From contig CAVZGV010000004.1 of assembly GCA_963774955.1 (NCBI GenBank), positions 67,522 to 131,521 of the forward strand: 64,000 nucleotides of DNA, written 5' to 3'. A program made the position numbers and the translations under genes. This document shows, one piece after another, positions 9,424 to 28,947 of the stretch. Each line of letters begins with the position of its first letter. Within the stretch, counting starts at the first letter, position 1. The stretch comes from Candidatus Falkowbacteria bacterium (GTDB taxonomy: Bacteria > Patescibacteriota > Patescibacteriia > CAIXNZ01). Below the pieces are notes generated by a model. The model worked only from the letters and a program-made list of their open reading frames with translations, made no database searches and was not told the origin of the DNA.

Positions 9424-9453
9424 TTGACAACTTTTTGACCCTATGATACATTG
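9424..9453 (+). promoter_or_regulatory. putative sigma70-type promoter for the nrtR-pnuC-nadR operon
   Basis: TTGACA (9425-9430) then 17-nt spacer then TACATT; about 140 nt upstream of nrtR start. Confidence 0.35.
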
Positions 9454-9593
9454 TGTATATAAGACACTAAGAGGTTAATAACCAATATCCAAATTCCAAT
9501 AACCAAAAAATTTGAAGAAATAAAAAACTTCCATGTTGCAACCTCATATAGCCTCATAAAACTTGATAAAACATTATATAACCTATTAAACTT

Positions 9594-10265
9594 ATGAACA
9601 CACATCCAGCCAAACAGAATATCAAAGTCGCGGTAGACAATTGTATTTTTACCATTATTGACAATGAACTTTATGTCTTGCTCATTCAAATGAAAAAAAG
9701 ACCCTATCAGGGCATGTGGGCTTTGCCGGGAGGACTGGTCAACCAAGGTGAAAACCTGGACAAGGCAGCTCTGAGGATCTTAAAGGACGAAACTAATGTC
9801 ACTGATGTTTATCTGGAACAGCTTTATACTTTTGGCAAAACCAAAAGGGATCCTTTAGGTCGGGTTATTTCCATTGCTTACTTTGCTCTTATCCCCTCAG
9901 CCAATCAGCAATTGAAAACTTTGGCCAAATACCAATCAGTCCAATGGTGGAAATATAATGACTTACCCAAACTGGCTTATGATCATAATGAAATTATCAA
10001 ATATGCCAAACAGCGTCTGGAGTGGAAAATTGAGTATACCAATGTTGTCTGGTCACTGTTACCTGAAAAATTCACCTTAAGACAATTACAGCAAGCTTAT
10101 GAAGCTATCTTGGGGAAAGCTATGGATAAACGCAATTTTCAGAAAAAAATCTTTGCCTTAAAATTAATCCAGCCTTTAGGGCAGAAAGCCATGTTTGGCG
10201 CTCATCGTCCAGCTGAACTTTATAGATTTAAAAGCCGCAAGCCCAAAATCGTTCAGATTCTATAA
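9594..10265 (+). CDS. nrtR: NrtR-like Nudix-related transcriptional regulator (N-terminal Nudix, C-terminal wHTH)
   Basis: Nudix box ALPGGLVNQGENLDKAALRILKDETNV; C-terminal FTLRQLQQAYEAILGKAMDKRNFQKK resembles NrtR wHTH; adjacent pnuC-nadR. Confidence 0.6.
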   Translation: MNTHPAKQNIKVAVDNCIFTIIDNELYVLLIQMKKRPYQGMWALPGGLVNQGENLDKAALRILKDETNVTDVYLEQLYTFGKTKRDPLGRVISIAYFALIPSANQQLKTLAKYQSVQWWKYNDLPKLAYDHNEIIKYAKQRLEWKIEYTNVVWSLLPEKFTLRQLQQAYEAILGKAMDKRNFQKKIFALKLIQPLGQKAMFGAHRPAELYRFKSRKPKIVQIL

Positions 10266-10347
10266 CGCTTTTTCTTACTTTTTTTTAACTTGACTTAGTG
10301 TATAAAATACACTTAAATATAAACTAACTAATTTAACCAACAAATCT

Positions 10348-11073
10348 ATGATCAACATTATCTCAAACTTCTTTAACATCAACAACACCTTTTTCACTCT
10401 TTGGGAATATCCCATGAGCTATCTGGAATTCTTCGGCACCTTGCTAAGCCTCCTGTGTGTTTATCTGGTCGCCAAGAAAAATATCTGGTCTTGGCCAATC
10501 GGCATTGTCGCCACCATCTTATTTGGAATACTTTTTTACCAAATTCAGCTCTACTCTGATTTCTTTGAACAAATTTACTTTCTAGTTACGGGCTTTATGG
10601 GCTGGTGGCTCTGGAAAAAGATGTCCAGCCAAAACAAAAAAAATAAGGAGAATATGGACCTTAAATTTAATAGCCCCAAACTAAACTTAATCTTACTGGC
10701 AGTAATTGTTGTCGGCACCGGAGCTCTTGGTTATTTAATGAGCAATATTCATCTTTACTTCCCTGCCTTATTTCCAATCGCCGCCACTTTTGCTTATCTG
10801 GATGCCTTTACCACTGCCATGAGCTTTGTCGCCAATATGTTATTGGTTTATAAGAGAATTGAAAATTGGCTCCTCTGGATCACCGTCGATATCATCGGCA
10901 TCTGGCTCTATTATGTCAAAGGCGTCAGATTCGTTTCCCTGCTTTATGTCATTTTCCTGGTGATAGCAACCAGCGGCTTAATTATCTGGCTCAGAGATTA
11001 TAAAAAAGCTAACAAACTAAATCAAACCTATGAAAAACGGAATTATAATCGGGAAATTTTACCCACTGCATAA
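10348..11073 (+). CDS. pnuC: nicotinamide riboside transporter PnuC
   Basis: strong similarity to E. coli PnuC region (LFGILFYQIQLYSDFF, GWWLWKK); multi-TM; start may be at internal Met 10414. Confidence 0.85.
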   Translation: MINIISNFFNINNTFFTLWEYPMSYLEFFGTLLSLLCVYLVAKKNIWSWPIGIVATILFGILFYQIQLYSDFFEQIYFLVTGFMGWWLWKKMSSQNKKNKENMDLKFNSPKLNLILLAVIVVGTGALGYLMSNIHLYFPALFPIAATFAYLDAFTTAMSFVANMLLVYKRIENWLLWITVDIIGIWLYYVKGVRFVSLLYVIFLVIATSGLIIWLRDYKKANKLNQTYEKRNYNREILPTA

Positions 11074-12064
11074 CGGACATTTAGCCTTAATTAACTTCGG
11101 ACTTAGCCAAGTTGATGAAATGACAGTCATTGTCTGCGATAAAAAAGGTCAACGCATTCCGGCCAAAGTCAGAGCCAATTGGATCAAAGAGCTGGCACCC
11201 AAGGCCAAAGTAATGATTGTTCCGGATATTGGCCAGGATGATGACTCTCAAGCTTGGGCCGATTACACCTTACAATTTCTGGGCTATAAACCTGACTGCG
11301 TCATCACTTCAGAAGCATACGGCAATACCTGGGCAGAATGCTTGAAAACTAAACATATCCTATTTGACCAGGCCAGAAACCTTGTACCTATCTGCGCTAC
11401 TAAAATTCGGGGAAATCCTTTGGCCAGTTGGGAATATTTACCGCCTCCGGTTCGCGCCTATTTTGCCAAAAGAATCTGCGTCATTGGAGCTGAATCAACC
11501 GGCACCACTACCCTGGCCAAAGACTTGGCTAAATATTACCAGACAACCTGGGTACCGGAATACGGACGCTATTATTCTGAAGCAAAACTTAATGCCAAGG
11601 ATAATAACAATTGGCGCACCGAAGAATTTTCCCACATTGCTGAAAAACAAAATCAGGCTGAAGATGCCCTGGCCCAAACCTGCAATAAAATCCTGATCTG
11701 CGATACTGATTCCTTTGCCACAGCGCTCTGGCATGAAAGATATCTGGGTAATTGGTCTGAACAAGTTGAAAAATTATTTTCAGACAGAAAAATTGATTAT
11801 TATCTGGTAACCAACGACGACATCCCCTTTGTTCAGGACGGTACCAGAGACGGCGAACACATCCGTCACCAAATGCAGCTGCGCTTTATCCAAGAACTAA
11901 AAAAAAGAAATAAAAAATTTACTGTTATTTCCGGAAATAAAGAAGAAAGGTTAACTAAAGCCGTTGAAATCTGCAACAAAATATTGGACGAACAGAATTT
12001 ATTTGCAAGTGCATATTTACAAACAAACAACATAACCATTAATAATAACGCTTATGTAAAATGA
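11030..12064 (+). CDS. nadR: NadR-type bifunctional NMN adenylyltransferase / ribosylnicotinamide kinase (no N-terminal HTH)
   Basis: GKFYPLHNGH (H/TxGH nucleotidyltransferase motif as in E. coli NadR); second-domain Walker A GAESTGTTTLAKDLA. Confidence 0.8.
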   Translation: MKNGIIIGKFYPLHNGHLALINFGLSQVDEMTVIVCDKKGQRIPAKVRANWIKELAPKAKVMIVPDIGQDDDSQAWADYTLQFLGYKPDCVITSEAYGNTWAECLKTKHILFDQARNLVPICATKIRGNPLASWEYLPPPVRAYFAKRICVIGAESTGTTTLAKDLAKYYQTTWVPEYGRYYSEAKLNAKDNNNWRTEEFSHIAEKQNQAEDALAQTCNKILICDTDSFATALWHERYLGNWSEQVEKLFSDRKIDYYLVTNDDIPFVQDGTRDGEHIRHQMQLRFIQELKKRNKKFTVISGNKEERLTKAVEICNKILDEQNLFASAYLQTNNITINNNAYVK

Positions 12065-12234
12065 AAATCCTTCTCCCCAGGAGCTGTGATTATGGGACAC
12101 GGCTCCTGTGACAGGAGGATATTATACCTTCGATTATCCAGATTGCTGGCATAAAGAAGGTAAAGGAAAGGTCTTTGAAAAAAAAGTATTGGGCTTCATT
12201 TCAACCAAACCAAACAAAAGGAGGTGGAAGTAAA

Positions 12235-12828
12235 ATGAAAAGAAAAAAGAACTTGCCCAAGCCGGTCAAATCCCAGCTGCGTATTATCGTGATCCGCTAC
12301 CGCAACAAACTCTATTTCCAGTTGGTTAACTTCCTATTCGACAAACTGGAAGCAAGAAATGTCAAGTATTTTTGCGGCAACGGCAAGATTACGGTTTTAC
12401 GTGACAGAAAAACCTTAGCCCGAATGGAATTTCGGGAAATCGAAGATGACCGAACCACAACCGATGGTTTCATTGAGCAATATCCCTGGGTGATCATGAA
12501 GCATGATGATTACTGCTTTTCGCGAGTACTTTTACCCCAATGGTTCAAACCAGGCGATATTTTACTCTTCAACTACACTACGCCGACTGACAAACTTTTT
12601 GCTCATCGGGTTGTGCCCGAAAAAATCACGCCCCAAGACGCAGCTGCCTATATGGTTTGGCCATATGCCTGGAGCATTTGTGCCTCAAAAGTCTACAATA
12701 ATTTAGGCAATCTGCTTTTGGGCAAACGCAAACAAGTGGATTTCAATTCCCTAATAGCAGCGTATACCCAAAAAGCTGTTTATCAGGGCAAAGAATTCCG
12801 AATCATTAACTTTTCCAAACTAGACTAA
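12235..12828 (+). CDS. hypothetical protein; first gene of GC-rich island
   Basis: GGAGG RBS before ATG 12235 (MKRKKNLPKP); GC jump at about 12200. Confidence 0.45.
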   Translation: MKRKKNLPKPVKSQLRIIVIRYRNKLYFQLVNFLFDKLEARNVKYFCGNGKITVLRDRKTLARMEFREIEDDRTTTDGFIEQYPWVIMKHDDYCFSRVLLPQWFKPGDILLFNYTTPTDKLFAHRVVPEKITPQDAAAYMVWPYAWSICASKVYNNLGNLLLGKRKQVDFNSLIAAYTQKAVYQGKEFRIINFSKLD

Positions 12829-12840
12829 AGGAGGACTGTC

Positions 12841-13446
12841 ATGAGAATCGAAGAGTACGCGAAATTGATAAGGACAGGACAGACAACGAAAAATCCTGTC
12901 ACGGGAATCTGCGGCCGAATAATTCGCGGCCAAAAACCGTCAGATTTTACCACCCTGACTGACGATCCTGAAAGAAAGATCGTCATGCTGGTGGATCCTG
13001 ACGGCCTGGCCAAATTGCTCGGCAAAACCGGATACCAAATGCTCATTGAAGTCGGCTACCAGCCGGATTACCTTGAGCATAAGGTCAAAGAAGGCAACCA
13101 ATTCAAACTGGCGGTCTTTCCCGAAGGCGGCGCTGCCCAGCTTGCGACCTGGGACAATGTCTTTGCCATGGTCAGTCAGGTCTATCCTGACATAACCTTC
13201 AGCACCCAGATCAAAAACGGCCTGAAGAAGCAAAGCTTTGACCAGATCGAAAAACAAGCCGGCTTCAAATTTCTTGAAGTGGAAAAAGCCGGAAAAAACG
13301 ATCCCCGCTTCATGACCTACAAGAAATTTAGAAATCCGGCCAGACCCTGGCCGACTTCCGCGCCTTCCTGTACTTCACCATCCATTTGCGTGAACTCTAC
13401 AGCGGCGACGGCTGGACCTATGACGACAAGGGCAATCGCGGAGTGA
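12841..13446 (+). CDS. hypothetical protein; C-terminal about 40 aa look out-of-frame (probable frameshift near 13325-13332 into the frame of the next gene)
   Basis: AGGAGG RBS; tail PARPWPTSAPSCTSPS is low complexity whereas the alternative frame from 13332 gives protein-like TLADFRAFLYFTIHLRELY and stays open to 13572. Confidence 0.35.
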   Translation: MRIEEYAKLIRTGQTTKNPVTGICGRIIRGQKPSDFTTLTDDPERKIVMLVDPDGLAKLLGKTGYQMLIEVGYQPDYLEHKVKEGNQFKLAVFPEGGAAQLATWDNVFAMVSQVYPDITFSTQIKNGLKKQSFDQIEKQAGFKFLEVEKAGKNDPRFMTYKKFRNPARPWPTSAPSCTSPSICVNSTAATAGPMTTRAIAE

Positions 13447-13571
13447 AAGAATACATCATCCCCAATCTGCCCATTGCCGACCTGGGTCCCAGCGAACTGA
13501 TCGACCTGGATATCCAACTGCCAACCGACATCAGCCCTGCCTTAAAAACAGGCAAAGAAAGGAGAACGACT

Positions 13572-14396
13572 ATGAAAAACCTGAAGATCCATATGCTGGT
13601 CATTGACCCGCAAAACGATTTCATGGACATCAATGGCGCCACCCTACCGGTGGCCGGAGCCAAAGATGACATGATCCGACTGGCGGGTCTGATCGACCGC
13701 GTCGGTCCCAAACTCGCGGACATCCATGTCACCATGGATAGCCACAGACTGCTGGACATCGCTCATCCCGCGTGGTGGGTGGACCAGAACCGGAACAACC
13801 CCGCACCCTTCACTATGATCACGGTCGACGACGTGGCCAACCGCATCTGGGTCCCGCGCAATCCCAACTTCTACGACCGCTGTCTGGCCTACGTCAAGGA
13901 ACTGAACCGCAAGGGCAACTACATGCTCTGCATCTGGCCGCCCCACTGCCTCATCGGCACCTGGGGACACAACGTATACCCCGAACTAAATGACGCTTTG
14001 CAGCTCTGGTCCGGCAAGGAATTCGCCATGGTCGACTACGTGACCAAGGGTTCCAACCCCTGGACCGAGCACTACGGCGCCATGGAAGCCGAGGTCCCGG
14101 ATCCTGAAGATCCCGGTACCCAGCTCAACACCAACTTTCTCAACATGCTGGCCGAGGCTGATATCGTCGCCATTGCAGGCGAAGCTCTCAGCCACTGCGT
14201 CAAAGCCACGGTTTCCCAGATCGCCGACAACATCGGCGAAGAGCACATCAAGAAGTTCCAGATCATCACCGATTGCACCAGCCCGGTCGGCGCCGTACCC
14301 AACGGCCCTGATTTCCCGGCCATTGCCCAGCAATGGTTGCTGGACATGCAAAAACGCGGCATGACCCTGGTCAAAGCCGACGACTTCCTGCGCTAA
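13572..14396 (+). CDS. isochorismatase-family cysteine hydrolase, nicotinamidase (PncA)-like
   Basis: MLVIDPQNDF, WPPHC, catalytic Cys context AGEALSHCV; AAAGGAG RBS before ATG 13572; frame is open upstream to 13332. Confidence 0.6.
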   Translation: MKNLKIHMLVIDPQNDFMDINGATLPVAGAKDDMIRLAGLIDRVGPKLADIHVTMDSHRLLDIAHPAWWVDQNRNNPAPFTMITVDDVANRIWVPRNPNFYDRCLAYVKELNRKGNYMLCIWPPHCLIGTWGHNVYPELNDALQLWSGKEFAMVDYVTKGSNPWTEHYGAMEAEVPDPEDPGTQLNTNFLNMLAEADIVAIAGEALSHCVKATVSQIADNIGEEHIKKFQIITDCTSPVGAVPNGPDFPAIAQQWLLDMQKRGMTLVKADDFLR

Positions 14397-14478
14397 ACCG
14401 GCAAACCCTGGGTTACCCCGCGTCGCGAGGTGACCCAGGGTAACCATCAATTTCCTAACCAAAGAAAGGAGAACGACC

Positions 14479-15234
14479 ATGCCACGCCTAATGGACAACG
14501 AAATGCAAGTTTCCAAAATTCCTGGAATGCAGGGATTTGCCTTCTCTGGCGTTCGGACCGAAAATCTCGGTGCCACCGAGTATACTCTGGTCACGATCGC
14601 GGTCGATGTTACCGGCTCGGTTGCCGGCTTTGAAAACGATCTGCGTAATTCGCTGATCGCCGCGGTCGAGGCCTGCAAAAAATCCCCGCGTTCCGATAAC
14701 CTGCTGTTACGGGTGATCATCTTCTCCACCAGCTACAAAAATGGGGTGGAAGAAATCCACGGGTTCAAACCCCTGGGTGAAATCGACCCGCAAGCCTATC
14801 CGCAGTTTCAGCCCGGAGGAGGCACTCCGCTTTTCGATGCCTGCTTCTCTGGCATCGGCGCCACCAACGTCTACGCCAAGAAGCTCATGGCCGACGATTT
14901 TCTGACCAACGGCATTGTCTTCATCATCACTGATGGCGAAGACAACGCTTCCCAGTCCACGCCCGCCATGATCAAGAAGGAAATCACCAAGGCCATCACC
15001 GGAGAAACCATCGAGTCCCTGATCACCGTCCTGATCGGCATCAACGCCAGCTACTGCAACCAAGCGCTGGATGATTTCCGCAATCAAGCGGGCATCAGCC
15101 AGTACATCGATGCCGGCCAGGCAACCAAAGGCAAGCTCGCTAAGCTGGCAGACTTCGTTTCTCAATCGGTTTCCAGTCAGTCCCAGGCTCTGGGTACTGG
15201 CGGACCGAGCCAGAAGATTTCTGCCACGATCTAA
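14479..15234 (+). CDS. vWA-domain protein (TerY-like) of a TerY-P triad
   Basis: MIDAS-like DVTGS, GGTPLFDA, IVFIITDGEDN. Confidence 0.65.
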   Translation: MPRLMDNEMQVSKIPGMQGFAFSGVRTENLGATEYTLVTIAVDVTGSVAGFENDLRNSLIAAVEACKKSPRSDNLLLRVIIFSTSYKNGVEEIHGFKPLGEIDPQAYPQFQPGGGTPLFDACFSGIGATNVYAKKLMADDFLTNGIVFIITDGEDNASQSTPAMIKKEITKAITGETIESLITVLIGINASYCNQALDDFRNQAGISQYIDAGQATKGKLAKLADFVSQSVSSQSQALGTGGPSQKISATI

Positions 15235-15351
15235 CAACCAAGGGAGATAATGGAGCAATCTGTTATCTCCCTATTTTTTCCCCACGTAGCGGGGTGAAAC
15301 CAGAAAGGCCCCGCCTACGCTAAAGCTTCTACGGACAAGGAGGTGAGATTC

Positions 15352-16227
15352 ATGATCCAGTTACAAACCGATCACTACTTCCACATTGGCAAAACGCACT
15401 TAACCAACGGTAAGCCTTGTCAGGATTATGCAATCTCACAGGTTATTAATGACGCAGCTATTGCGATCATCTGTGACGGTTGCTCTTCCGGCGGACAAAC
15501 CGATGTCGGCGCCAGGCTCTTAGGCTTAACCACCCAAGCTGCTTTGCTTAACCACTGGCTGACCAACGGCCAAATCATTCCGGAACCAACCAGCGCTGAA
15601 ATCAGGCTCAATCAAAAAATCAAACTAGCCTCTGCTTGTCAGCTTTTGGGACTGCAACCCAATGACTTGCTGGCCACCTGCGTTTACGCTTATTTCGGGC
15701 CGCAGGCCGGAATTATTCACATCCAGGGAGACGGAGTCGTTGCCCTCAAATTCACTGACCAACATATCCTGATGCACCGATTTGAGTGGCAAGACAATCG
15801 ACCCTATTACCCGGCTTATGCTGAAAGTCGCTTGGCTGATTTCATTGCCGCTCATGGTAATAATCTGCAAGCCTTACGTTTGAAATCCGAAACCTGGCAA
15901 ACCGTCGCGTCTCAACAACAGCTTTTACAGACCAACGACTACACGCTGAGCCAGGGACTGCAAGGCCTGATCATCAACTTGGACCAGACACTGATCAGCC
16001 AAGGGCTGGAATTCATTGCCGTCTTTTCCGACGGCGTCACCCAAATTGACAATGTGAATTGGCAAGACGCGGTGACTGAATTCCTCAGTTTCAAAAATAC
16101 CAAGGGTGAATTTGCCAAGCGCAGAATGATCCGCGGTATTCAGGATATGATCAAGGTTAATAAAGGTCCATTGGATGACATTGCTTACGCGGTAATTCGG
16201 TTGGACCAAAACCAAAAGGAGGTGTGA
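15352..16227 (+). CDS. PP2C-family Ser/Thr phosphatase
   Basis: IAIICDGCSSGGQTDVGARL and AVFSDGVTQ motifs; AAGGAGG RBS before ATG 15352. Confidence 0.55.
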   Translation: MIQLQTDHYFHIGKTHLTNGKPCQDYAISQVINDAAIAIICDGCSSGGQTDVGARLLGLTTQAALLNHWLTNGQIIPEPTSAEIRLNQKIKLASACQLLGLQPNDLLATCVYAYFGPQAGIIHIQGDGVVALKFTDQHILMHRFEWQDNRPYYPAYAESRLADFIAAHGNNLQALRLKSETWQTVASQQQLLQTNDYTLSQGLQGLIINLDQTLISQGLEFIAVFSDGVTQIDNVNWQDAVTEFLSFKNTKGEFAKRRMIRGIQDMIKVNKGPLDDIAYAVIRLDQNQKEV

Positions 16228-16228
16228 G

Positions 16229-17962
16229 ATGCCAACTATGCGTGGCAACATCGAAGTTGTCTTAGCCAACCGCGGAGCATTGACTCTGCGACCGGCGGAT
16301 CACGTTGCCACCGGGGGAGAAGGCTCGATTTATCGGGCTAAAAACACCATCATCAAATTGTATACTGACCCCAGAAAAATGAATCAGGATGGCATGGTTG
16401 AAAAGATCAAACTCTTATCAGCCATTAAGCATCCTTTCATTGTTTCGCCCACGGGGCTGGTAAACAATAATGCTGGTACTCCTGTTGGCTTTTACATGCC
16501 TTTTAGCGAAGGCGAACCCTTGCCCAGAGTTTTTACCAATGACTGGCGCAAACGCGAAAACTTTAATGACCAGCAGGCAAAAACTTTGGTTGACAACATG
16601 CGACAGGCAGTCGAAGTTGCCCACGCCAACCACGCGCTTTTAGTTGATGCCAATGAGATGAACTGGCTAGTATCTTTGGCCAAAGCAAATCAGCCCGAAC
16701 CCAGAATCATTGATGTTGATTCCTGGCAAATTGGACGCTTCCCGGCCAAGGTCATCATGCTGTCCATCCGCGATTGGCTCAATCCAAAATTTACCGAGTC
16801 GAGCGACTGGTTTAGCTGGGGAATTGTCACCTTCCAGGTCTTTAGCGGCATCCATCCTTACAAAGGAACACTGCCAGGCTACAAACCCAATCAACTTGAA
16901 GATCGCATGAAAGCCAAAGCCTCGGTCTTTTCCCAAGGTATTCAGCTGAATAAAGCGGTTCGGGATTTCTCAGTTATTCCCGGGCCCTTGCTCGACTGGT
17001 ATATTGCCGCCTTCCAGAACGGCGAACGGACCAAACCACCGTCACCCTTCGATTCCGGACTGACTCAAGCCAAAGTAGCCAGAGTACTGCATGCAGTTAC
17101 AACCGCAAGCGGCCTGCTGGTTTTCGAAAAACTATTGCAGCCGGTCAACGACCCAGTGATCAGAATCTTTCCTTGCGGCGTGGTCTTGCTGAATTCAGGT
17201 AAGCTGTTTGACTTACAAAAGCAATACCAAATCAGCACGGCCAAAACCAGGGACGTTGAAATCATCAGGATTGATAACGGCTGGCTCAAAGCCGAGATCA
17301 TTAACAAGCGGTTACAATTCAATTTCATCAATGCAACCAGCCTCAACGAAGAACCGCTTAAATTTGATCTGGCTGGTGAGAAGATCTTTCGCTGCGACAA
17401 TCGCTTGTTTGTCATCAATGAGCAAGGCCTGACCGAAGTGATCCTGAAATTCTTTTCCAAGCCGATCCTGGCTCTGGGCAAAACCTGGGGCGTGCTGGCG
17501 AATTCCATTCGCTGGTATGATGGCTTGGGCATCCAAAACACCATGGGTGCGACTTACATCATTGCTCCGTTCAATGACACTGCCTGCGCCGAAATCAGGG
17601 TGCCGGAACTTGATGGCTTAAAACCCATTAGCGCCAAAGCCGGTCAACGTTACATAGTTGTCATTGCTTTAGACAAGCAAGGCAACTACCAAAAAGTTGA
17701 GCTGACTCTGGATCGGGAATATAAAACCTACAAGGTCTGGCAGGAAATTGTTGACAGCCCTGATCTTAATCTGACCATCTTGCCAAAAGGTGTCTGCGCG
17801 ACAATTGTCAAAGACGGAGAGCTGAACATCTTTGTTCCGACCTCAAGCACCCAAAACACGGTCAAAGATAAAAACATCAGCACTGACATGCTTTTATACA
17901 ACTGGGAGAACAAAGTTGTTTATCTGCAAAACGGCGAAATCTGGGGCGTTAAAATGAAATAA
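16229..17962 (+). CDS. Ser/Thr protein kinase-like protein (N-terminal kinase fold, large C-terminal domain)
   Basis: Gly loop ATGGEGSIYRA, Lys in IIKLYTD, catalytic-loop-like HANHALLVDANEMNWLV. Confidence 0.5.
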   Translation: MPTMRGNIEVVLANRGALTLRPADHVATGGEGSIYRAKNTIIKLYTDPRKMNQDGMVEKIKLLSAIKHPFIVSPTGLVNNNAGTPVGFYMPFSEGEPLPRVFTNDWRKRENFNDQQAKTLVDNMRQAVEVAHANHALLVDANEMNWLVSLAKANQPEPRIIDVDSWQIGRFPAKVIMLSIRDWLNPKFTESSDWFSWGIVTFQVFSGIHPYKGTLPGYKPNQLEDRMKAKASVFSQGIQLNKAVRDFSVIPGPLLDWYIAAFQNGERTKPPSPFDSGLTQAKVARVLHAVTTASGLLVFEKLLQPVNDPVIRIFPCGVVLLNSGKLFDLQKQYQISTAKTRDVEIIRIDNGWLKAEIINKRLQFNFINATSLNEEPLKFDLAGEKIFRCDNRLFVINEQGLTEVILKFFSKPILALGKTWGVLANSIRWYDGLGIQNTMGATYIIAPFNDTACAEIRVPELDGLKPISAKAGQRYIVVIALDKQGNYQKVELTLDREYKTYKVWQEIVDSPDLNLTILPKGVCATIVKDGELNIFVPTSSTQNTVKDKNISTDMLLYNWENKVVYLQNGEIWGVKMK

Positions 17963-17975
17963 CGCCCAACGGGGG

Positions 17976-18013
17976 GAGAAATTGTACCACGTTACAATTT
18001 CTCCCCCACTTCT
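17976..18013 (+). terminator. rho-independent terminator after kinase gene
   Basis: ggggagaaattgta...tacaatttctcccc hairpin. Confidence 0.6.
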
Positions 18014-18290
18014 TTCTTCATAAAATTGCGACCAAAAATATTTTGGTCATAATTTTATACTTTAATCTGAGATTAAAGTGAAACTAAGTTCTTTAAAACT
18101 TATACTCAAAACATATTTTACCCCTCCTTGGGGGTTTGGGGGGCCGAACTAAGCGTCGTGATCAAAACCACGAACGAACCATATGCACTAGCGCATTGAG
18201 GCCCCCCAAAACTTTTTGCATACTTTTTTGTTCAAAAAAGTATGAAGCCGAAGGCTTAAAGTTCTCAGAACCTGAAAGGAGGACCTAATC

Positions 18291-18488
18291 ATGGAAACCA
18301 CCAAACACAACCGGGAAGTGGTCCAAAGAGTGGGCGACTTGGTCGTAGACCTGTCTAACGAAGTCGATCCGCTGCCCATGTCTGAACCGGCCAAAGAAGC
18401 CATGGTCATGGTCATGGTTGCCAACTGCCTAAAAAGCCAGGGCAACATTGTTACCTTTTGTCTGCCAACCTTCAAGACTGGCTTATAA
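18291..18488 (+). CDS. small hypothetical protein (65 aa)
   Basis: AAAGGAGG RBS; preceded by AAAGTTCT box; followed by terminator 18557-18603. Confidence 0.45.
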   Translation: METTKHNREVVQRVGDLVVDLSNEVDPLPMSEPAKEAMVMVMVANCLKSQGNIVTFCLPTFKTGL

Positions 18489-18769
18489 CCAAGGCAATCT
18501 GAGACAGACAAAAAACTTAAATTTTCAGCTAATTTAAGCTGAAATGTTTTACTAGCACCATTAGCGGGGAAAGTCGGTTTTCACCCCGGCTTTCCCCCTT
18601 TTTAAAACCTTGACAAATATAACATATTTTGATAAACTAATAAGTCGTCTTTTACCTAATCTTAGACGAGCAATAGAAAATTTTAACTAAATAATTTTGG
18701 TTAAATTTTTCTGGCTTTGACTCAGTCAAAACCACAGTCCTTTAAACCTTAATTTAAGGGAGAAATCCT

Positions 18770-19405
18770 ATGCCAAAACAAATCATTGCCGTCGGCGGTT
18801 CAGCGGCTAATCCGCCTCACTTGGGGCACTTAGCTTTGATCCAAGCCATGTTACAATCAAAAAAATTTTCCAAAGTAATGTGGATCCCTTCCGGGGTGCG
18901 CCCGGACAAGCCTGACTTCATTGATCCGCAACATCGCCTGGCCATGACTGAACTGACACTGCAATCGATTACAGACAAAAGATTCATTTTGAATCCCAGC
19001 GATGTTTATGGCAAAAACATGCCGACCATCAAATGGATGGAGATTCTCAAGGAACAAAATCCCCAAGCGGAAATTGTCTGGTATACAGGCGTTGATTCTG
19101 TTGTGCCGCAAAAAAAATTCGGCGGCCTATGTAAAATTGAAGCGCGCTGGCAACATGGGGAAAAATTAATTAAGAATTTTAAATTCCTAATTATCCCCCG
19201 CGCCGGTTATCCGCAGCCTTCAACTTTCAAAATTCCTCTTGAGGATTATGAAATCCTGGATGTGGAACTGCCTGACATTGCCAGTTCAAAAATTCGAAAA
19301 CTTGTTCAAGGAGGTAACAGCGATTTTGAAAAACTAGTAACGCCTGAAGTTTCCGCCTATATCAAGGTTAACAAACTTTACGGATGGAAAGGAGAAAAAG
19401 CATGA
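18770..19405 (+). CDS. nadD: nicotinate/nicotinamide mononucleotide adenylyltransferase (NadD-like)
   Basis: GGSAANPPHLGHL (HxGH nucleotidyltransferase motif), about 210 aa. Confidence 0.65.
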   Translation: MPKQIIAVGGSAANPPHLGHLALIQAMLQSKKFSKVMWIPSGVRPDKPDFIDPQHRLAMTELTLQSITDKRFILNPSDVYGKNMPTIKWMEILKEQNPQAEIVWYTGVDSVVPQKKFGGLCKIEARWQHGEKLIKNFKFLIIPRAGYPQPSTFKIPLEDYEILDVELPDIASSKIRKLVQGGNSDFEKLVTPEVSAYIKVNKLYGWKGEKA

Positions 19406-20007
19406 GCAAAGCAGTGATCACTATTGGCGAAAGCGACGCCCTGACCATTGTTGACGGGCAAAATGATTTCATCTTGCAGACCGGAACTCTTTATGTGACC
19501 GGAGTGGAAGGTGAAACCGACAACGAGGAAATCATCAAACGAATCCAGGAACTATGGTCAAAATTTTCAACCTGGAGAACCACGACTGAAGATTTCCATC
19601 CCGAGAATCACGTGGAACACACGATTTTTGGTCCCCATTGCATTGAAGACACCGCCGGCCAGGAATATCATCCTGACCTGATGAAAATATATGAGGACGC
19701 TGATCTAAATCTATATAAAGGCGAAAATCCGGACATTATTGCCTATTCAATTGCAACCAGCCCTGATTTTCATGACCACATTTCCGATTTGCGCCAACAT
19801 GGCATCAAGAGAGTCTTTCTTGTCGGCTGGGCTTTCACCCATTGTGTGGGGGAATCGGCCATTGCCTATGCGACCCAAGGGTTTGAAACCTTTGTCTTCC
19901 GCGATCTGTCCCGGAGCGTTCCTCCGCCCTATGGCGATCCGGATGCAATGACCAAAAAGCTGGAACTCTACGGGGTCAAGCTGATCACGTCTGACCAAAT
20001 CGCTTAA
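19402..20007 (+). CDS. pncA: nicotinamidase PncA (isochorismatase family)
   Basis: LTIVDGQNDF, GPHCIEDTAGQEY, catalytic Cys in LVGWAFTHCVGESAI; ATG 19402 overlaps nadD stop. Confidence 0.7.
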   Translation: MSKAVITIGESDALTIVDGQNDFILQTGTLYVTGVEGETDNEEIIKRIQELWSKFSTWRTTTEDFHPENHVEHTIFGPHCIEDTAGQEYHPDLMKIYEDADLNLYKGENPDIIAYSIATSPDFHDHISDLRQHGIKRVFLVGWAFTHCVGESAIAYATQGFETFVFRDLSRSVPPPYGDPDAMTKKLELYGVKLITSDQIA

Positions 20008-20232
20008 ACACTCAGGGTGAGTCCGATTAATTTCGGACTTACCCTTTAGAAAAATGTAACTAACCGCGTTGTCATGGTGAGTCCTTCGACAAAGCTCAGG
20101 ACAAGCATAACGAGTTTATGGTGAGCCAAGCCGAACCAAACCATGACATTACCCCCGCTCATTTGGTTCCATTTTTCTTCTCTCAAACAGGTTGAGAGAG
20201 AAAGTTCTTTCGAAAAACAAAGGAGAAATAAG

Positions 20233-21165
20233 ATGAAGACTCATAACTATCTCTGGCATGCCTTTGGAATGAACGGGAAAATTCTTAATTGGTGGCCTGC
20301 AGAAAAGAGTAAATTTTCAGCGCCACAAGTTGAACTGGACATTTCTGACATTCAATCCCAGCTTTTTGAGAAGGTGGGTGAGTGGGTAGGAGTTAAGGAA
20401 TCTGAAAATCTTGAAGATGAAGAAATGATCACCCAGCATGTGCTTGAAACTTACCAAGCCTGGGGCAAATTCGGACCTTATGGTGATTTAATCCAAATCT
20501 CCTATGATAGAGACCAGCGCAGAGCGCATATCGATTTCATCGGCCGCCTGGCCTTCCCCAAACCAGCCCTGGCTGCTGACCTGCTTCCGATCATTCGTGA
20601 CGCTGCAGGAAATTTGTTCTTCATCGGCATCACCAGAAAAAAAGAGCCTGGAATCGGCAAACCCGCCTTGATCGGCGGACATCTCGACATCAAAGGCTAT
20701 CATCTAGAAACCGCAGCCGAAGCCCTGATTCACGAAGCCAAAGACGAAGTCGGGCTTAAAATTACAGTAATGAAGCAACATGCGCGCGAAATAAAAACCA
20801 AGCCCTATATGCCCAGGATTCCTGTTTCAGTCGGCTTGAAGGGCTATCCCAAACTGCCAAGCGAACTGCTTCTGGTCGGAACTTTTGAAACCTCGGCCGA
20901 AGAAAAGCTGCTGCATCTGGGTACAAGGCGAGTTTCCCAAACCACAGCTTACACCATGATCATCGACATCCGTGATCGAATATTAACTCCAGATGATGTC
21001 GCTAAGCTGTTTTCCGCCGGAGATGATGCAGCCAGCATCTTTGTTCATCAAATCACAAAAAATCACTGGCTATTCGATTTATTCAATCGCGCCATCTATC
21101 ATCATCAAACGATTTATGTGGCAGCACTGTCACAACTCCGCCGAGAGAGCATAATCAACATCTAA
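20233..21165 (+). CDS. hypothetical protein with degenerate Nudix-like box
   Basis: ETAAEALIHEAKDEVGL resembles Ex7REUxEExGU; AAAGGAG RBS. Confidence 0.4.
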   Translation: MKTHNYLWHAFGMNGKILNWWPAEKSKFSAPQVELDISDIQSQLFEKVGEWVGVKESENLEDEEMITQHVLETYQAWGKFGPYGDLIQISYDRDQRRAHIDFIGRLAFPKPALAADLLPIIRDAAGNLFFIGITRKKEPGIGKPALIGGHLDIKGYHLETAAEALIHEAKDEVGLKITVMKQHAREIKTKPYMPRIPVSVGLKGYPKLPSELLLVGTFETSAEEKLLHLGTRRVSQTTAYTMIIDIRDRILTPDDVAKLFSAGDDAASIFVHQITKNHWLFDLFNRAIYHHQTIYVAALSQLRRESIINI

Positions 21166-23542: not shown

Positions 23543-24694
23543 ATGCAAGTAGTTTACGCAGGTGAAAAAATTCCAACCAGCTGGAAAAAATCCATTTTCC
23601 TGGCTGGCCCAACTCCCCGAGACAAAAATGTTGTCTCATGGAGACCTGAAGCTTTGGCCATCTTACAGGCCAAAGGTTATGATGGCGTAATTTTCGCTCC
23701 GGAAAATCGGGACGGTCAGTCCAGACCCAATTATAATGACCAAGTCGAATGGGAAAACGAAGGACTTAACCGCACCGATGTTATTTTGTTCTGGGTACCG
23801 CGGGAACTGAAAACCATGCCCGCCTTTACCACTAATGTGGAATTCGGCGAATGGTTCAAATCCGGCAAAATCGTTTTGGGCTTTCCCCAGGACGCGCCCA
23901 ACATGAGATATCTGGAAAGCAAGGCCAAAGCTTTCAACGTTTCCTGCGCAGATACGCTGGAGGCAACGATTGATCTGGCCTTGAACATGCTCGGCGCCGG
24001 CGCGGATAGAAATAACGGAGAAACCTATGTGCCTTTACACATCTGGCAGACACCGGCTTTCCAAAACTGGTACCAGAATCTCAAAGCAGCCGGTAACCGG
24101 CTGGACTCAGCTCGAGTCGAGTGGGTTTTCCGCGTTGGTCCCAAGAAAAACTTTGTTTTTCTCTGGGTCCTGTATGTTGATGTTTTCATTACCAAGGAAA
24201 ACCGCCACAAAACCAACGAAGTCATTCTGGCTCGCCCGGACATTGCCACCATCCTGATGTACAAACCCGCAAAAATTTTGCTGGAAACTGAGATTGTCCT
24301 GATCCGGGAATTTCGCAGTCCGGTTTCCAACTCTGACGGCTATGTCTGGGAAATCCCCGGCGGTTCATCTTTCAAACCGAAAGAAGATCCCAACAAACTC
24401 GCAGCGCATGAAGCTTTTGAAGAAACCGGGATGGAAATTCTAGCCGAACGTTTCAAAGCAATCGATGCCAGGCAACTCTGCGCCACACTGTCCACTCACA
24501 AGGCTCATCTGTTTGCCGTGGAAGTAACCGATGATGAAATCAATTGGTTACGCCAGCAGCAAGGAGTTGCTCACGGCGTAATCGAAGACACGGAACGCAC
24601 TTACGTGGAAATAAAAACCCTTCAAGAAATTCTGGCTCAGAATCTGGTTGACTGGAGCATACTCGGCATGATCCTCTCAGTCTTAATAAAATAA
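23543..24694 (+). CDS. fusion of nucleoside 2-deoxyribosyltransferase-like domain and NUDIX hydrolase
   Basis: KSIFLAGP Rossmann-like N-terminus; C-terminal Nudix box GGSSFKPKEDPNKLAAHEAFEETGM. Confidence 0.55.
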   Translation: MQVVYAGEKIPTSWKKSIFLAGPTPRDKNVVSWRPEALAILQAKGYDGVIFAPENRDGQSRPNYNDQVEWENEGLNRTDVILFWVPRELKTMPAFTTNVEFGEWFKSGKIVLGFPQDAPNMRYLESKAKAFNVSCADTLEATIDLALNMLGAGADRNNGETYVPLHIWQTPAFQNWYQNLKAAGNRLDSARVEWVFRVGPKKNFVFLWVLYVDVFITKENRHKTNEVILARPDIATILMYKPAKILLETEIVLIREFRSPVSNSDGYVWEIPGGSSFKPKEDPNKLAAHEAFEETGMEILAERFKAIDARQLCATLSTHKAHLFAVEVTDDEINWLRQQQGVAHGVIEDTERTYVEIKTLQEILAQNLVDWSILGMILSVLIK

Positions 24695-24861: not shown

Positions 24862-25680
24862 ATGACCATGCCGAGAGATTTAATTTTGGTTCGCCACGGA
24901 CAGTCCGAAGGCAACCTGGTAATTATGCAATTGGAAAAGCAAGGACTGCCAGTGCCGGATGAATATTACCGCAAGCACACAGCTCACTGGCGTCTGACCA
25001 GCAAAGGAGTACAGCAGGCGGAAATAGCAGGACAATGGCTGCGGCAGAACTTGGTTACCGAATTTGACCGCTACTATGTTTCTGACTATGTCAGGGCCAA
25101 AGAAACAGCCGCCTTACTCGGGCTGAAACAGGCTTCCTGGGGCATCAACATTTACCTTGGCGAACGCAACTGGGGTATTATGGATCGATATACTGAAGAA
25201 GAAAGAAACAAAATCTTTGAGATTGATTTAGTAACCAAGAAGATCCACCCCTTTTACTGGACCCCGCCCCGCGGCGAATCCATGGTTCAGCTGTGCCTGC
25301 GTCTGGAAAAAGTCCTGGAAACTCTGCATCGCGAATGCGCTGATGGCCGGGTTATTCTAGTCTGTCACGGCGAGGTAATGTGGGGCTTTCGGATCATTCT
25401 GGAAAGAATTCCTCCGGACAAATACGTGAAACTTGATGAATCCAAAAATCCTTTTGACAGGATTCACAACTGCCAAATTCTGCACTACTCGAGAAAAAAT
25501 CCCGGCACTGGTCAGCTTTCTGACCATCTCGACTGGATGAGGTCTCTTTGTCCGACGGATCTGAGTTTATCTGCCAATGCCTGGCAAGAAATTAGCCGAC
25601 CGCGGTTTACCAACGAACAGCTGCTGAAACATGCAGCCAAATTTCCTCGGGTAATCGATAATCAGGAGGAAAAATCATGA
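24862..25680 (+). CDS. histidine phosphatase superfamily (phosphoglycerate mutase-like) protein
   Basis: LILVRHGQSEGN (RHG motif). Confidence 0.7.
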   Translation: MTMPRDLILVRHGQSEGNLVIMQLEKQGLPVPDEYYRKHTAHWRLTSKGVQQAEIAGQWLRQNLVTEFDRYYVSDYVRAKETAALLGLKQASWGINIYLGERNWGIMDRYTEEERNKIFEIDLVTKKIHPFYWTPPRGESMVQLCLRLEKVLETLHRECADGRVILVCHGEVMWGFRIILERIPPDKYVKLDESKNPFDRIHNCQILHYSRKNPGTGQLSDHLDWMRSLCPTDLSLSANAWQEISRPRFTNEQLLKHAAKFPRVIDNQEEKS

Positions 25681-26639
25681 TTGACAAAATCGCTCACGGC
25701 CAGGGCCAGATGAGAGCCCAGTCTTTTTCCATTCAGGTTTCTGACCGGGAAAAATGCAATGCGGGCTGCAAATTTTGCATCTCGCGCACCACGCCCGGAG
25801 ATTCCCAAAGAATTCTGATTCCAAAGATGCAAGAGACAAAACCCAAGCTCTGCGACTTTGACCGCCTTAAAATCGGCCTGAATTATGCCAGAAGTCTGGG
25901 TGCAACTCATGCTATCCTGACTGGCAAGGCTGATCCGCTTCAGGAGCCGACCGAAGAGCTGTGCAAATTGCTTCAGCTCTGCCGGGAATATCTGCCGCTC
26001 GCGGATATGCACACTAATGGATTACTCCTCCATCCTGAATTCAATAGAGGAAATGACCTGACCCAGCTCAAACAAGCGGGTTTAACCATGATCACTATTT
26101 CTCTGGCATCCTTCAACGAGCAGCAGAACTTTGAACTGATGCGCATCAAAAAAAGCGCCGCTGACCTGATTAAACAAGCAGCGGATCTTGGCCTGCTGGT
26201 GCGCTGCTCCCTGGTCGTCAATGCTCAGGGAGTCGCTGATGTGGCAGGCGTGATTGATTATTGCAGACAAGCCGGTGAGCTCGGCGCTCATATGGTCGTG
26301 GTTCGCGAAGTCTGGGTGCCTGAAATCTATGGCGAGCGCAACCTGGGAGTCTACGATTGGAACAAAACCAATAAGATCAACATCAAGCCGATCCAGGACC
26401 ATTTCATTGAAATTTGCCATAAGAAAAATGATTTTGGCCTATGCCAACTTGATCCTTTGCCATGGGGCACTCCGGTCTTTGGCATGGCCGGTGTCTTTAC
26501 CAATCAAGATCACGGGGTAAACATCACCTTTGCCTGTTGTGACGAAGGCACCACCGGTTCGGTCATCAAGTCTATCGTGCACAAACCCAACGGCCACGGT
26601 TACGGTAATTGGGATCATGGTGGTCGTATCCTTTATTAA
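25677..26639 (+). CDS. radical SAM enzyme of unknown specificity
   Basis: CNAGCKFC (Cx3Cx2C); AGGAGG RBS; ATGA overlap with upstream gene. Confidence 0.6.
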   Translation: MIDKIAHGQGQMRAQSFSIQVSDREKCNAGCKFCISRTTPGDSQRILIPKMQETKPKLCDFDRLKIGLNYARSLGATHAILTGKADPLQEPTEELCKLLQLCREYLPLADMHTNGLLLHPEFNRGNDLTQLKQAGLTMITISLASFNEQQNFELMRIKKSAADLIKQAADLGLLVRCSLVVNAQGVADVAGVIDYCRQAGELGAHMVVVREVWVPEIYGERNLGVYDWNKTNKINIKPIQDHFIEICHKKNDFGLCQLDPLPWGTPVFGMAGVFTNQDHGVNITFACCDEGTTGSVIKSIVHKPNGHGYGNWDHGGRILY

Positions 26640-26676
26640 ATTTTTAGGGCGAATCCCGCGACGCAGGATTCGCCCC

Positions 26677-26778
26677 TCTACTCAAATTATTTTTAGGTAA
26701 TCAAAATCTAGAATCTATGCCGCGTAGCGGCATCCCGCTTCGCGGGAAAACCTAAAATCTAACTAAAAATAATTTAGG
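26677..26778. repeat. intergenic inverted-repeat module, family A copy 3 (with extra GC hairpins in the centre)
   Basis: CTACTCAAATTATTTTTAGG ... gccgcgtagcggc / cccgcttcgcggg ... CTAAAAATAATTTAGG. Confidence 0.8.
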
Positions 26779-26851
26779 CGGAGACAGTTCTTTTCAAAAA
26801 CATTTAACCAAGTCGCCGTCGCTAAAGCTATGGCGACTAAAGGAGAAAAAA

Positions 26852-27859
26852 ATGAGCAGAGACAAAGTAAGAGCCATGTTTTTGGGAGTGGCCATCGGCG
26901 ATGCCCTGGGCATGCCAGTGGAAACAAAAAACTTTTTGGAAATCGAAACTGAGCATGGCCGCGTAACAGATTATCTGGATCCCGGTAACCATAAATGGTT
27001 CAAAGGGTTTCAGCGCGGACAATGGACTGATGATACCCAAGCCACCTTGGCTGTGCTCACATCCCTGATTATTCAAGGCAAAATTGACTTGGCTGATATG
27101 GCTCAGAGACAGATAGACACAATGAACGAATGTTCAAAGGGCTGGGGACGCAGCACCAAAAACTCTCTTCGTGCAGTTGAACGCGGGGTTCACTGGCTGA
27201 AATCAGGTAATCCCCAGGGAGCCGGCAATGGCGTGGCCATGAAAATCGCGCCGCTGGCAGCCTATCTGGCCGCTCCCAATACCGATCATGCCATTGCCGA
27301 AAATGTTGCCGAACTGGCACTGATGACCCATCAGACTGACATGGCGGTACTTTCCGGCTTTGTCCAAATGCACGCTTTGTCATATTGCCTCAATTGCGTC
27401 GACGAAAATCGCCCTTTTTCCGCCGAAGGTCTGTTACAGTATGTTCTGCGCTACGGCAAAGCAGTCAAAGTCATGCTGCGCGAAAAAAAATATCAGCTGA
27501 CCTATCTGCAGGAGGATTTCCTCGGCCGCTTTGCCGCAATGATGTGTCTGTTTGATGAATTCAAGCAGATGACACCGGCCAAATTGGCCGAATGTTACGG
27601 CGGCGCTGACTGCTATGTTTACAATTCGCTGCCATTCACCATTGCCATGTTCCTGCGCAATCCGCATTCCATTGAAACTCTTTACGACACGGTCAATGCC
27701 GGCGGCGACACAGATACCAATGGTTCCATGGTCGCTGCTCTGCTCGGCAGCCTTAACGGCACCAAGATTTTCCCAGCGCATCTGATTGACGGCCTGTGGC
27801 AGAAAGACCGGATTCTCCAGGTCGCCAATGACTTCTGCGACCGTTTCCAAATCAAATAA
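26852..27859 (+). CDS. ADP-ribosylglycohydrolase (ARH/DraG family)
   Basis: AIGDALGMPVE and AGGDTDTNGSMVAALLGS signatures. Confidence 0.8.
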   Translation: MSRDKVRAMFLGVAIGDALGMPVETKNFLEIETEHGRVTDYLDPGNHKWFKGFQRGQWTDDTQATLAVLTSLIIQGKIDLADMAQRQIDTMNECSKGWGRSTKNSLRAVERGVHWLKSGNPQGAGNGVAMKIAPLAAYLAAPNTDHAIAENVAELALMTHQTDMAVLSGFVQMHALSYCLNCVDENRPFSAEGLLQYVLRYGKAVKVMLREKKYQLTYLQEDFLGRFAAMMCLFDEFKQMTPAKLAECYGGADCYVYNSLPFTIAMFLRNPHSIETLYDTVNAGGDTDTNGSMVAALLGSLNGTKIFPAHLIDGLWQKDRILQVANDFCDRFQIK

Positions 27860-27900
27860 ACTCCCGAGGCGTGAATTCCTAAATTCAGGAGTTCACGCCT

Positions 27901-27973
27901 CCTAACTCAAATTATTGTTCCGCCCAAAAATCTAAAATCTAGAACCTAAAATCCAACAATAATTTAAGTTAGG
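27901..27973. repeat. intergenic inverted-repeat module, family A copy 4
   Basis: CCTAACTCAAATTATTGTT ... AACAATAATTTAAGTTAGG (19-bp inverted repeat) flanking AATCTA repeats; terminator 27866-27901. Confidence 0.8.
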
Positions 27974-28022
27974 AGGGAAAGTCCCTTAACAATTTTAAAA
28001 AATACCAATAGGAGGTTTTCAG

Positions 28023-28934: not shown

Positions 28935-28947
28935 AAAGGAGTTCAAG

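Follow-up and report, generated by a model that had tools for sequence, protein, structure and literature searches.

A TerY-P-like vWA–PP2C–kinase triad in conserved company with a nicotinamidase-like gene and NAD-salvage genes of Patescibacteria

Based on the comparative evidence collected in this study, the three genes at positions 14479–17962 of a 64,000-nucleotide stretch of DNA from a Candidatus Falkowbacteria bacterium (GenBank assembly GCA_963774955.1, contig CAVZGV010000004.1, positions 67,522 to 131,521; the whole stretch is here called the window) are understood as a TerY-P-like triad of a vWA protein (gene 1), a PP2C phosphatase (gene 2) and a Ser/Thr kinase (gene 3). The conserved unit is a tetrad, in which a gene for a PncA-like nicotinamidase is followed by those for vWA, PP2C and kinase. 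Its members show recognisable domain identities and intact catalytic residues; the order and co-orientation of the genes are fixed, an operator is held in common, a hairpin lies inside the unit, and the distribution extends over bacteria, a provirus and huge phages. We read the locus as a TerY-P-like triad recruited into an NrtR-type regulon for the salvage of nicotinamide adenine dinucleotide (NAD), where it would be a functional part of salvage control, and we hold this reading with as much belief as doubt. An earlier sequence-only reading had described consecutive genes for a vWA protein with a metal-ion-dependent adhesion site (MIDAS), a phosphatase and a kinase, and the co-directional open reading frames (ORFs), the fold models and the matches to PP2C_2 and Pkinase all bear this out.

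The tetrad emerges from a survey of 88 loci, 8 obtained by look-ups of the exact proteins and 80 with one genome per GTDB species, searched by tblastn with the window proteins. The order PncA-like, vWA, PP2C, kinase is present in 80 of the 88, the remainder being cut by contig ends, and the tetrad is complete in every species-representative locus with enough upstream sequence (64 of 64). Where at least 4 kb was available on both sides, 35 of 45 loci have a further NAD gene within ~10 kb (pncB 29, nrtR 26, nadE 18, nadD 12). The PncA-like gene is, in many of these loci, the only nicotinamidase seen beside pncB, and several loci place the tetrad amid what reads as a complete nicotinamide-to-NAD pathway. 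The closed Niyogibacteria sequence CP066691.1 has the order nrtR, PncA-like, vWA, PP2C, kinase, NadD-like nucleotidyltransferase (CTP_transf_like), PncB, Prs and NadE. The link to NAD genes, which the sequence-only reading had proposed from this one genome and wished to see surveyed around homologous triads, recurs, as the 80 species-representative loci and the shared NrtR-type operator attest. Chance juxtaposition with NAD genes is ruled out by the recurrence across loci together with the shared palindrome described below. No ter, restriction or nuclease genes occur near the cassette in the Patescibacteria loci, its neighbours there being NAD and housekeeping genes. Homologues of the studied proteins come almost wholly from Patescibacteria/Parcubacteria metagenome bins.

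Regulatory evidence is provided by a palindrome, TAGTGTA-N5-TACACTA, that was found de novo in the regions upstream of the tetrad and counted with up to 2 mismatches. It accounts for 157 sites in 1.5 Mb of loci, compared to 0–3 in dinucleotide-preserving shuffles. Sixty-six of the 157 are found no more than 350 nt upstream of the tetrad (in 46 of 80 loci), and no other locus has the palindrome before it so often; the remaining sites are situated mainly upstream of nrtR (24), pncB (15), nadD (7), nadE (6) and pnuC (6). The palindrome matches the published NrtR operator core GT-N7-AC, from which ADP-ribose releases the protein, the release having been demonstrated for other NrtR proteins only (PMC2330246). 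It is predicted to be an NrtR operator common to the cassette and the NAD-salvage genes in many Patescibacteria. In the window, one such operator (TTGTGTATATAAGACACTA, 9451–9469, plus strand) is placed 5′ of nrtR, overlapping a promoter-like site at 9424–9452, and another (TAGTGTATAAAATACACTT, 10296–10314, plus strand) between nrtR and pnuC. The nrtR gene (9594–10265, plus strand) encodes a NUDIX and an NrtR winged-helix domain (NrtR_WHD 1.4e-25, NUDIX 5.5e-15) and thus a predicted ADP-ribose-responsive repressor; genes for PnuC, a transporter of nicotinamide mononucleotide (NMN) or nicotinamide riboside (NR), and for a NadR-like NMN adenylyltransferase/NR kinase follow at 10348–12064 (plus strand). 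From the second operator to gene 1 no terminator-like site is predicted on the plus strand, a weak one appearing at 14814 inside gene 1 and the first strong one at 15241; one NrtR-controlled transcript may therefore extend from pnuC through nadR and the PncA-like gene to the vWA gene.

The first tetrad gene (13578–14396, plus strand; 272 aa from an internal ATG) appears to encode a nicotinamidase, as judged from its residues and its best PDB matches. The Asp/Lys/Cys triad, the Asp-x-His...His metal site and the WPxHC motif, features in common with PncA and Pnc1, are conserved at 70–95% or more in 77 family members, in an alignment referenced to a Mycobacterium tuberculosis PncA sequence. The best PDB sequence matches are nicotinamidases (29iv, 4.6e-5; yeast Pnc1, 2h0r, 3e-4; M. 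tuberculosis PncA, 3pl1, 1.4e-3). Unlike PncA and Pnc1, the tetrad enzyme carries a ~50-aa insertion and a C-terminal extension, scores below threshold against the Pfam family Isochorismatase (17.8 bits; threshold 27), and always has the triad after it. In close relatives it is fused to an N-terminal domain of ~240 aa with no known function, giving proteins of 513–518 aa; the window retains this domain at 12841–13332 (plus strand). Compared with L009, a 96%-identical relative, the window lacks 1 nt near 13329, and this deletion breaks the 518-aa fusion into ORFs at 12841–13446 and 13386–14396, the frameshifted frame of the PncA-like gene beginning at ~13332. The frameshift may be genuine or may stem from misassembly in an A/T run, and the enzyme part could start at ATG 13578, as it does in many genomes where the enzyme stands alone. 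As a separate observation, the window holds two nicotinamidase-family proteins, the long tetrad member (13578–14396) and a canonical 207-aa PncA encoded in the downstream cluster (19384–20007); in most related loci the tetrad copy is the sole nicotinamidase-family gene shown.

Gene 1 (14479–15234, plus strand; 251 aa) is assigned to the TerY type, with a vWA fold and an intact MIDAS motif as predicted by its AlphaFold2 model (pLDDT, the predicted score in the local distance difference test, 80; predicted template modelling score (pTM) 0.84), which matched 234 PDB chains of vWA or integrin I domains at E≤1e-3. The MIDAS residues D43-x-T-G-S47, T116 and D152 show no variation in 30 homologues. 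The protein ends in a Ser-rich tail (FVSQSVSSQSQALGTGGPSQ), and its last 35 residues (KLAKLADFVSQSVSSQSQALGTGGPSQ...) are nearly invariant; the tail is retained in Bradyrhizobium, in other bins outside the Patescibacteria and in huge phages. Identity among the best 120 clusters is 63–89%, though the carrier genomes are otherwise reduced. JGI labels the homologues of gene 1 'YegL', which is presumably the TerY-type vWA cluster of orthologous groups. The expectation that profiles would identify all three proteins held for PP2C_2 and Pkinase and failed for the vWA protein: gene 1 matches nothing in Pfam, NCBIfam or PADLOC and, in PHROGs, one unknown-function family only, the sole PHROGs match of the triad, and its profile found nothing among PDB sequences, the fold being seen in the model instead.

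Gene 2 (15352–16227, plus strand; 291 aa, with a start at 15343 (GTG) or 15352 (ATG)) belongs to PF13672, PP2C_2 (E 8.7e-15), and the metal-binding Asp motifs of the phosphatase (QD, DGCSxGG, GDG, SDG, DD) are conserved in 81 sequences; a search of PDB sequences returned nothing for it, and an NCBIfam scan returned no match for any triad protein. Translational coupling, suggested by the sequence-only reading for all three genes, is consistent with the junction of genes 2 and 3, which abut (TGA 16225–16227, ATG 16229), and does not extend to genes 1 and 2, which are separated by 108–117 nt containing a terminator-like hairpin with a 14-bp stem and a T-run (15241–15272, plus strand). A GC-rich hairpin with a T-run, followed by a ribosome-binding site, is present in the short vWA–PP2C gap of at least 49 of 80 related loci (L002–L088). 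Its structure is conserved and its sequence differs each time, pointing to a conserved attenuator that adjusts how strongly the cassette genes are expressed relative to one another. From the recurrence of this hairpin, the enzyme and vWA genes may be expressed in excess over those for PP2C and kinase. Downstream, the cassette is closed by a terminator-like hairpin with a 15-bp stem (17972–18007, plus strand). The ~800 bp leading to the NadD cluster downstream contain this hairpin, a second one at 18566–18597 and a promoter-like site at 18610–18638; as predicted from these elements, the triad and the NadD cluster are not one operon.

Gene 3 (16229–17962, plus strand; 577 aa) encodes a Hanks-type Ser/Thr kinase, with the kinase domain in residues 1–280 and a large all-beta C-terminal domain of 290 aa in residues 288–577. 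This arrangement, an N-terminal kinase followed by a large additional domain, had been anticipated from the sequence and is now evident in the model. The Pkinase match is a marginal pass (31.9 bits; gathering score 31.7), and the AlphaFold2 model (pLDDT 86) matched 1711 PDB kinase chains. Whether the protein might be a pseudokinase had been raised by the sequence-only reading, and that is ruled out because the glycine loop GGE and residues K43, H132, D140, N142, D162 and D164 do not vary among 43 aligned homologues. For the C-terminal domain, Pfam gave nothing and a PDB sequence search gave chance-level matches only. When 1.84 billion cluster representatives were searched for this domain by phmmer, 714 proteins matched at E≤1e-3 (243 at E≤1e-10). 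Most of the best 150 of these 714 (~90) are proteins of 545–600 aa with the domain at their C-terminus, the shorter ones being mostly fragment-like, and no fusions between cassette members were found among the 150.

The TerY-P triad was reportedly described by Anantharaman, Iyer and Aravind in 2012. As set out in later accounts, it consists of a TerY-like vWA protein, a PP2C and a Ser/Thr kinase fused to a zinc ribbon (in CoCoNuT) or to an OB fold (in the defence systems of Gao 2020) (PMC11090510), has been hypothesised to act as a phosphorylation switch that senses metal (PMC11090510, PMC4978471), and has relatives validated as stand-alone defence systems (Gao 2020 via PMC11090510). A Mesorhizobium plasmid VWA-PP2C-kinase triad beside an AbiEii toxin gene was used for comparison as canonical-looking. 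Aligned by hhalign, the kinase-family profile of the locus matched the Mesorhizobium kinase at 97% probability (E 2e-11), and the distinctive motifs GGEGxVY, D-x-N and IDxDS(F/W) are common to the two kinases; the vWA profile matched the vWA of that triad, a single sequence, weakly (E 1e-3, probability 21%). The locus has in common with TerY-P a TerY-type vWA with MIDAS, a PP2C and a Ser/Thr kinase in the same order, and the Mesorhizobium vWA has the same kind of Ser-rich C-terminal tail. The locus differs from TerY-P in four respects: the kinase bears the 290-aa all-beta domain, zinc ribbon and OB fold not being detected; the PncA-like nicotinamidase is an obligatory fourth gene; ter, McrBC/CoCoNuT, restriction and secretion genes are missing nearby, with HerA-like and exonuclease neighbours in Bradyrhizobium only; and the cassette stands behind an NrtR-type operator within NAD-salvage operons of reduced genomes. 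The assignment to TerY-P made by the sequence-only reading is thus upheld for the three-gene architecture and for the kinase clade, as the Mesorhizobium kinase alignment and motifs indicate, and does not hold for the C-terminal domain or for the association with ter and restriction genes. PADLOC recognised no TerY-P system among the window proteins, a result that is uninformative because the Mesorhizobium control triad was likewise not recognised.

Two further systems provide points of reference. The characterised NrtR regulons share with the locus a regulator of NUDIX and winged-helix domains, a palindrome with the GT-N7-AC core and targets among pncB, nadD, nadE, pnuC-nadR and prs, whereas the paper that describes them makes no mention of a phosphatase or a vWA protein and has kinases only as enzymes of NAD and ribose metabolism (Rodionov et al. 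2008, PMC2330246). The Deinococcus radiodurans operon DRA0331-0334 also joins vWA, kinase and PP2C into a signalling module, and differs in having an FHA protein, another gene order and a function in DNA-damage sensing, with no nicotinamidase or NAD link reported in the abstract of the preprint (bioRxiv 10.64898/2026.01.23.701218). Full-text literature searches, with incomplete coverage that left the original TerY-P paper outside, found no paper on an association of the triad with NAD.

Full tetrads are not confined to Patescibacteria. They were found in three Bradyrhizobium isolates (kinase 43–45% identical), a Thermosynechococcus bin, an Agitococcus bin and a gammaproteobacterial bin. The Bradyrhizobium loci (L067, L074, L077) have genes for radical-SAM, DUF3268, RNase T-like, HerA-like, exonuclease and M20 peptidase proteins as neighbours, and other NAD genes were not found within 10 kb of their tetrads. 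Bradyrhizobium sp. Leo170, Bradyrhizobium sp. Ai1a-2 and B. embrapense SEMIA 6208 are culturable carriers. A 121-kb IMG/VR provirus (L094, UViG_2906610324_000001) holds the tetrad in the same order and is collinear with the Bradyrhizobium embrapense locus. All four genes, again in the same order and with unrelated ORFs between some of them, are carried by the huge phages LR756511.1 (595 kb) and LR745208.1 (485 kb). The latter also has a NUDIX gene and (L092, 11012–12229) a 51%-identical copy of a 383-aa protein, encoded at 23543–24694 of the window, that resembles nucleoside 2-deoxyribosyltransferase (NDT); since LR745208.1 carries the tetrad together with this NDT-like copy, the GC-rich island around the window tetrad and the huge phages have at least five genes in common. 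A more distant relative resides on the megaplasmid of Variovorax sp. SRS16 (plasmid 2, NZ_LR594667.1; L089, 7108–19227), where a PP2C and a 35%-identical kinase are accompanied by genes for PncB, AlkB, a MazG-like NTP pyrophosphohydrolase, a NADAR protein and NAD synthase (nadE), and where a 304-aa Cys-rich protein with CxxC motifs takes the place of the vWA gene.

The window is a segment of bacterial chromosome of ~38% GC, with housekeeping genes for a PilB-like ATPase, TsaD, PolA, HolA, RmuC and HisD. Inside it lies an island at ~12–31 kb of 48–55% GC that contains many NAD genes; nrtR, pnuC and the nadR-like gene are situated just 5′ of the island and have host-like GC. The tetrad (13578–17962) has 51.5% GC against 37.9% in its flanks. 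The triad had been placed by the sequence-only reading in a GC-rich island, between a nicotinamidase-like gene directly upstream and NadD, PncA, NadK and PncB genes downstream, and the GC profile and family matches agree with that placement. Most Patescibacteria loci have a cassette that exceeds its flanks in GC, the median excess being 6 points and the largest 16 (59 related loci); for the window and the relatives nearest to it the excess is 14. Both lateral spread and a compositional constraint on very conserved proteins are compatible with this. An Rfam scan of the window gave four tRNAs only and detected no riboswitch in the vicinity of the cassette, a megablast comparison of the island with phage genomes was without match, and Pfam gave nothing for the unknown ORFs of the island.

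Several other features of the region were noted in passing. Between nadR and the fusion gene, a 217-aa ORF with a TTG start (12175–12828) has no Pfam, PHROG or PADLOC match and no tblastn match in the 88 related loci; it looks like a genome-specific insertion because the closest relatives show only a ~200-nt gap there. The 800-bp, AT-rich spacer at 17963–18770 contains hairpins or palindromes at 17972–18007, 18030–18048, 18523–18544 and 18566–18597, as well as a 65-aa ORF (18291–18488) that has a good ribosome-binding site but matches no family; a 62-aa product at the equivalent spacer position was also predicted by a gene caller on another contig. After the NadD-like and PncA genes, a 340-aa protein (20143–21165) without family match has homologues of 31–70% identity that turn up repeatedly in NAD clusters of a number of relatives (L001/L002, L005, L009, L050, L059). 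In the region 24862–30915, genes for a histidine phosphatase, a radical-SAM protein, an ADP-ribosylglycohydrolase, a divergent PRPP-synthetase-like protein and a glutamine-dependent NAD synthase follow one another. Taken with the phosphoribosyltransferase gene, the Prs-like gene recalls ADP-ribose-based pathways that are reported to rebuild NAD in phages.

Bacterial NAD salvage is controlled transcriptionally (NrtR, NiaR, NadR), and the mechanism that we propose for the tetrad would begin at this level. NAD consumption would cause NrtR to leave its operator, ADP-ribose being formed when NAD is cleaved, and the cassette would then be transcribed together with pncB, nadD and nadE. The nicotinamidase-like enzyme and the vWA protein would be produced in excess, with the hairpin after the vWA gene passing only some transcripts on to PP2C and kinase. 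The kinase would sense a signal by its C-terminal beta-domain and phosphorylate the vWA protein, most likely on the Ser-rich tail, and PP2C would reverse the modification. Phosphorylation would alter what the vWA MIDAS binds, be it metal, the nicotinamidase or both, and would so gate the entry of nicotinamide into the PncB-NadD-NadE route. That a specific phosphorylation switch on the vWA protein gates the nicotinamidase in this way is a tentative suggestion, about which our doubt clearly exceeds our confidence. To the same limited extent we consider it possible that the tetrad is a dedicated nicotinamide/NAD sensor-switch at the core of Patescibacteria NAD homeostasis, captured by huge phages and proviruses to control host pools, e.g., against NAD-depleting immunity.

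A number of observations weigh against recruitment of the triad into NAD-salvage control. The operators of the window precede nrtR and pnuC, with none directly in front of the tetrad, and the suggested co-transcription over ~4 kb depends on no terminator being predicted over that distance. In ten of the 45 doubly flanked loci, the three Bradyrhizobium isolates included, no other recognisable NAD gene lies within 10 kb, and the three Bradyrhizobium loci show no palindrome at the threshold used. The Variovorax relative has no detectable vWA or PncA-like gene despite its pncB, NADAR and nadE neighbours. The physical or enzymatic link among vWA, kinase and nicotinamidase is one that we infer. Occurrence of the cassette in mobile contexts (provirus, huge phages) suits a role in conflict as well.

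Conflict enters two of the alternative explanations. NAD depletion and rebuilding are a recognised central battleground of phages and bacteria, and the cassette might have originated as a module of phages or mobile elements that sustains NAD salvage during infection, for counter-defence or host takeover, and was later domesticated by Patescibacteria, with kinase and phosphatase timing its activity. That two huge phages and the 121-kb provirus have the four genes in identical order is in keeping with such an origin, as are the NDT-like and NUDIX genes of one of the phages and the median 6-point excess of cassette GC over the flanks. We nonetheless think it rather unlikely, given that no more than four viral records came to light, as opposed to hundreds of bacterial clusters, that the Patescibacteria cassette is under a host-type repressor and beside core genes (tsaD, rpoB), and that a nicotinamidase alone cannot rebuild NAD without the PncB, NadD and NadE of the host. 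The other explanation from conflict takes the triad as an autonomous anti-phage switch of the TerY-P type that tends to lodge by NAD genes, the nicotinamidase-like protein being an accessory or effector. It can draw on the stand-alone defence function validated for TerY-P-like triads (Gao 2020 via PMC11090510), on the homology of the kinase to that of the triad beside the AbiEii toxin gene, on the atypical GC of the cassette in most loci, and on Bradyrhizobium, where HerA-like ATPase and exonuclease genes are close to the cassette and further NAD genes are lacking. We judge it distinctly unlikely. A fixed place in a metabolic regulon is rare for defence genes and is here kept across lineages whose kinases are 45–55% identical; one operator precedes the cassette and pncB, nadD and nadE; the proteins are unusually conserved and not diversifying; and the OB fold or zinc ribbon of TerY-P kinases is not detected, nor are restriction, ter or nuclease genes found near the cassette in Patescibacteria.

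A general signalling module, responsive to host contact or stress, for example, with targets unrelated to NAD and a place in the operon due to historical accident, seems very improbable to us. The beta-rich sensor domain could bind anything, and in the window a terminator-like hairpin divides PP2C and kinase from the enzyme and vWA genes, both of which such a module would accommodate. Linkage to the PncA-like gene, however, persists where other NAD genes are absent (Bradyrhizobium, phages), and the Variovorax relative (35% identity) again adjoins pncB, a NADAR gene and nadE.

Lastly, the reading of the tetrad as a part of NAD-salvage control would have importance for the biology of the organisms that carry it. 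Patescibacteria are genome-reduced and host-dependent and must scavenge NAD precursors, and the cassette is kept in hundreds of their lineages while also being carried by huge phages. If the reading is true, a kinase/phosphatase switch within the salvage operon would constitute an added, post-translational layer of NAD-salvage control, and the nicotinamidase would represent a concrete biochemical partner for a module of the TerY-P type, the mechanism of which remains hypothetical. Culturable Bradyrhizobium strains carry the cassette, which makes the hypothesis directly testable.

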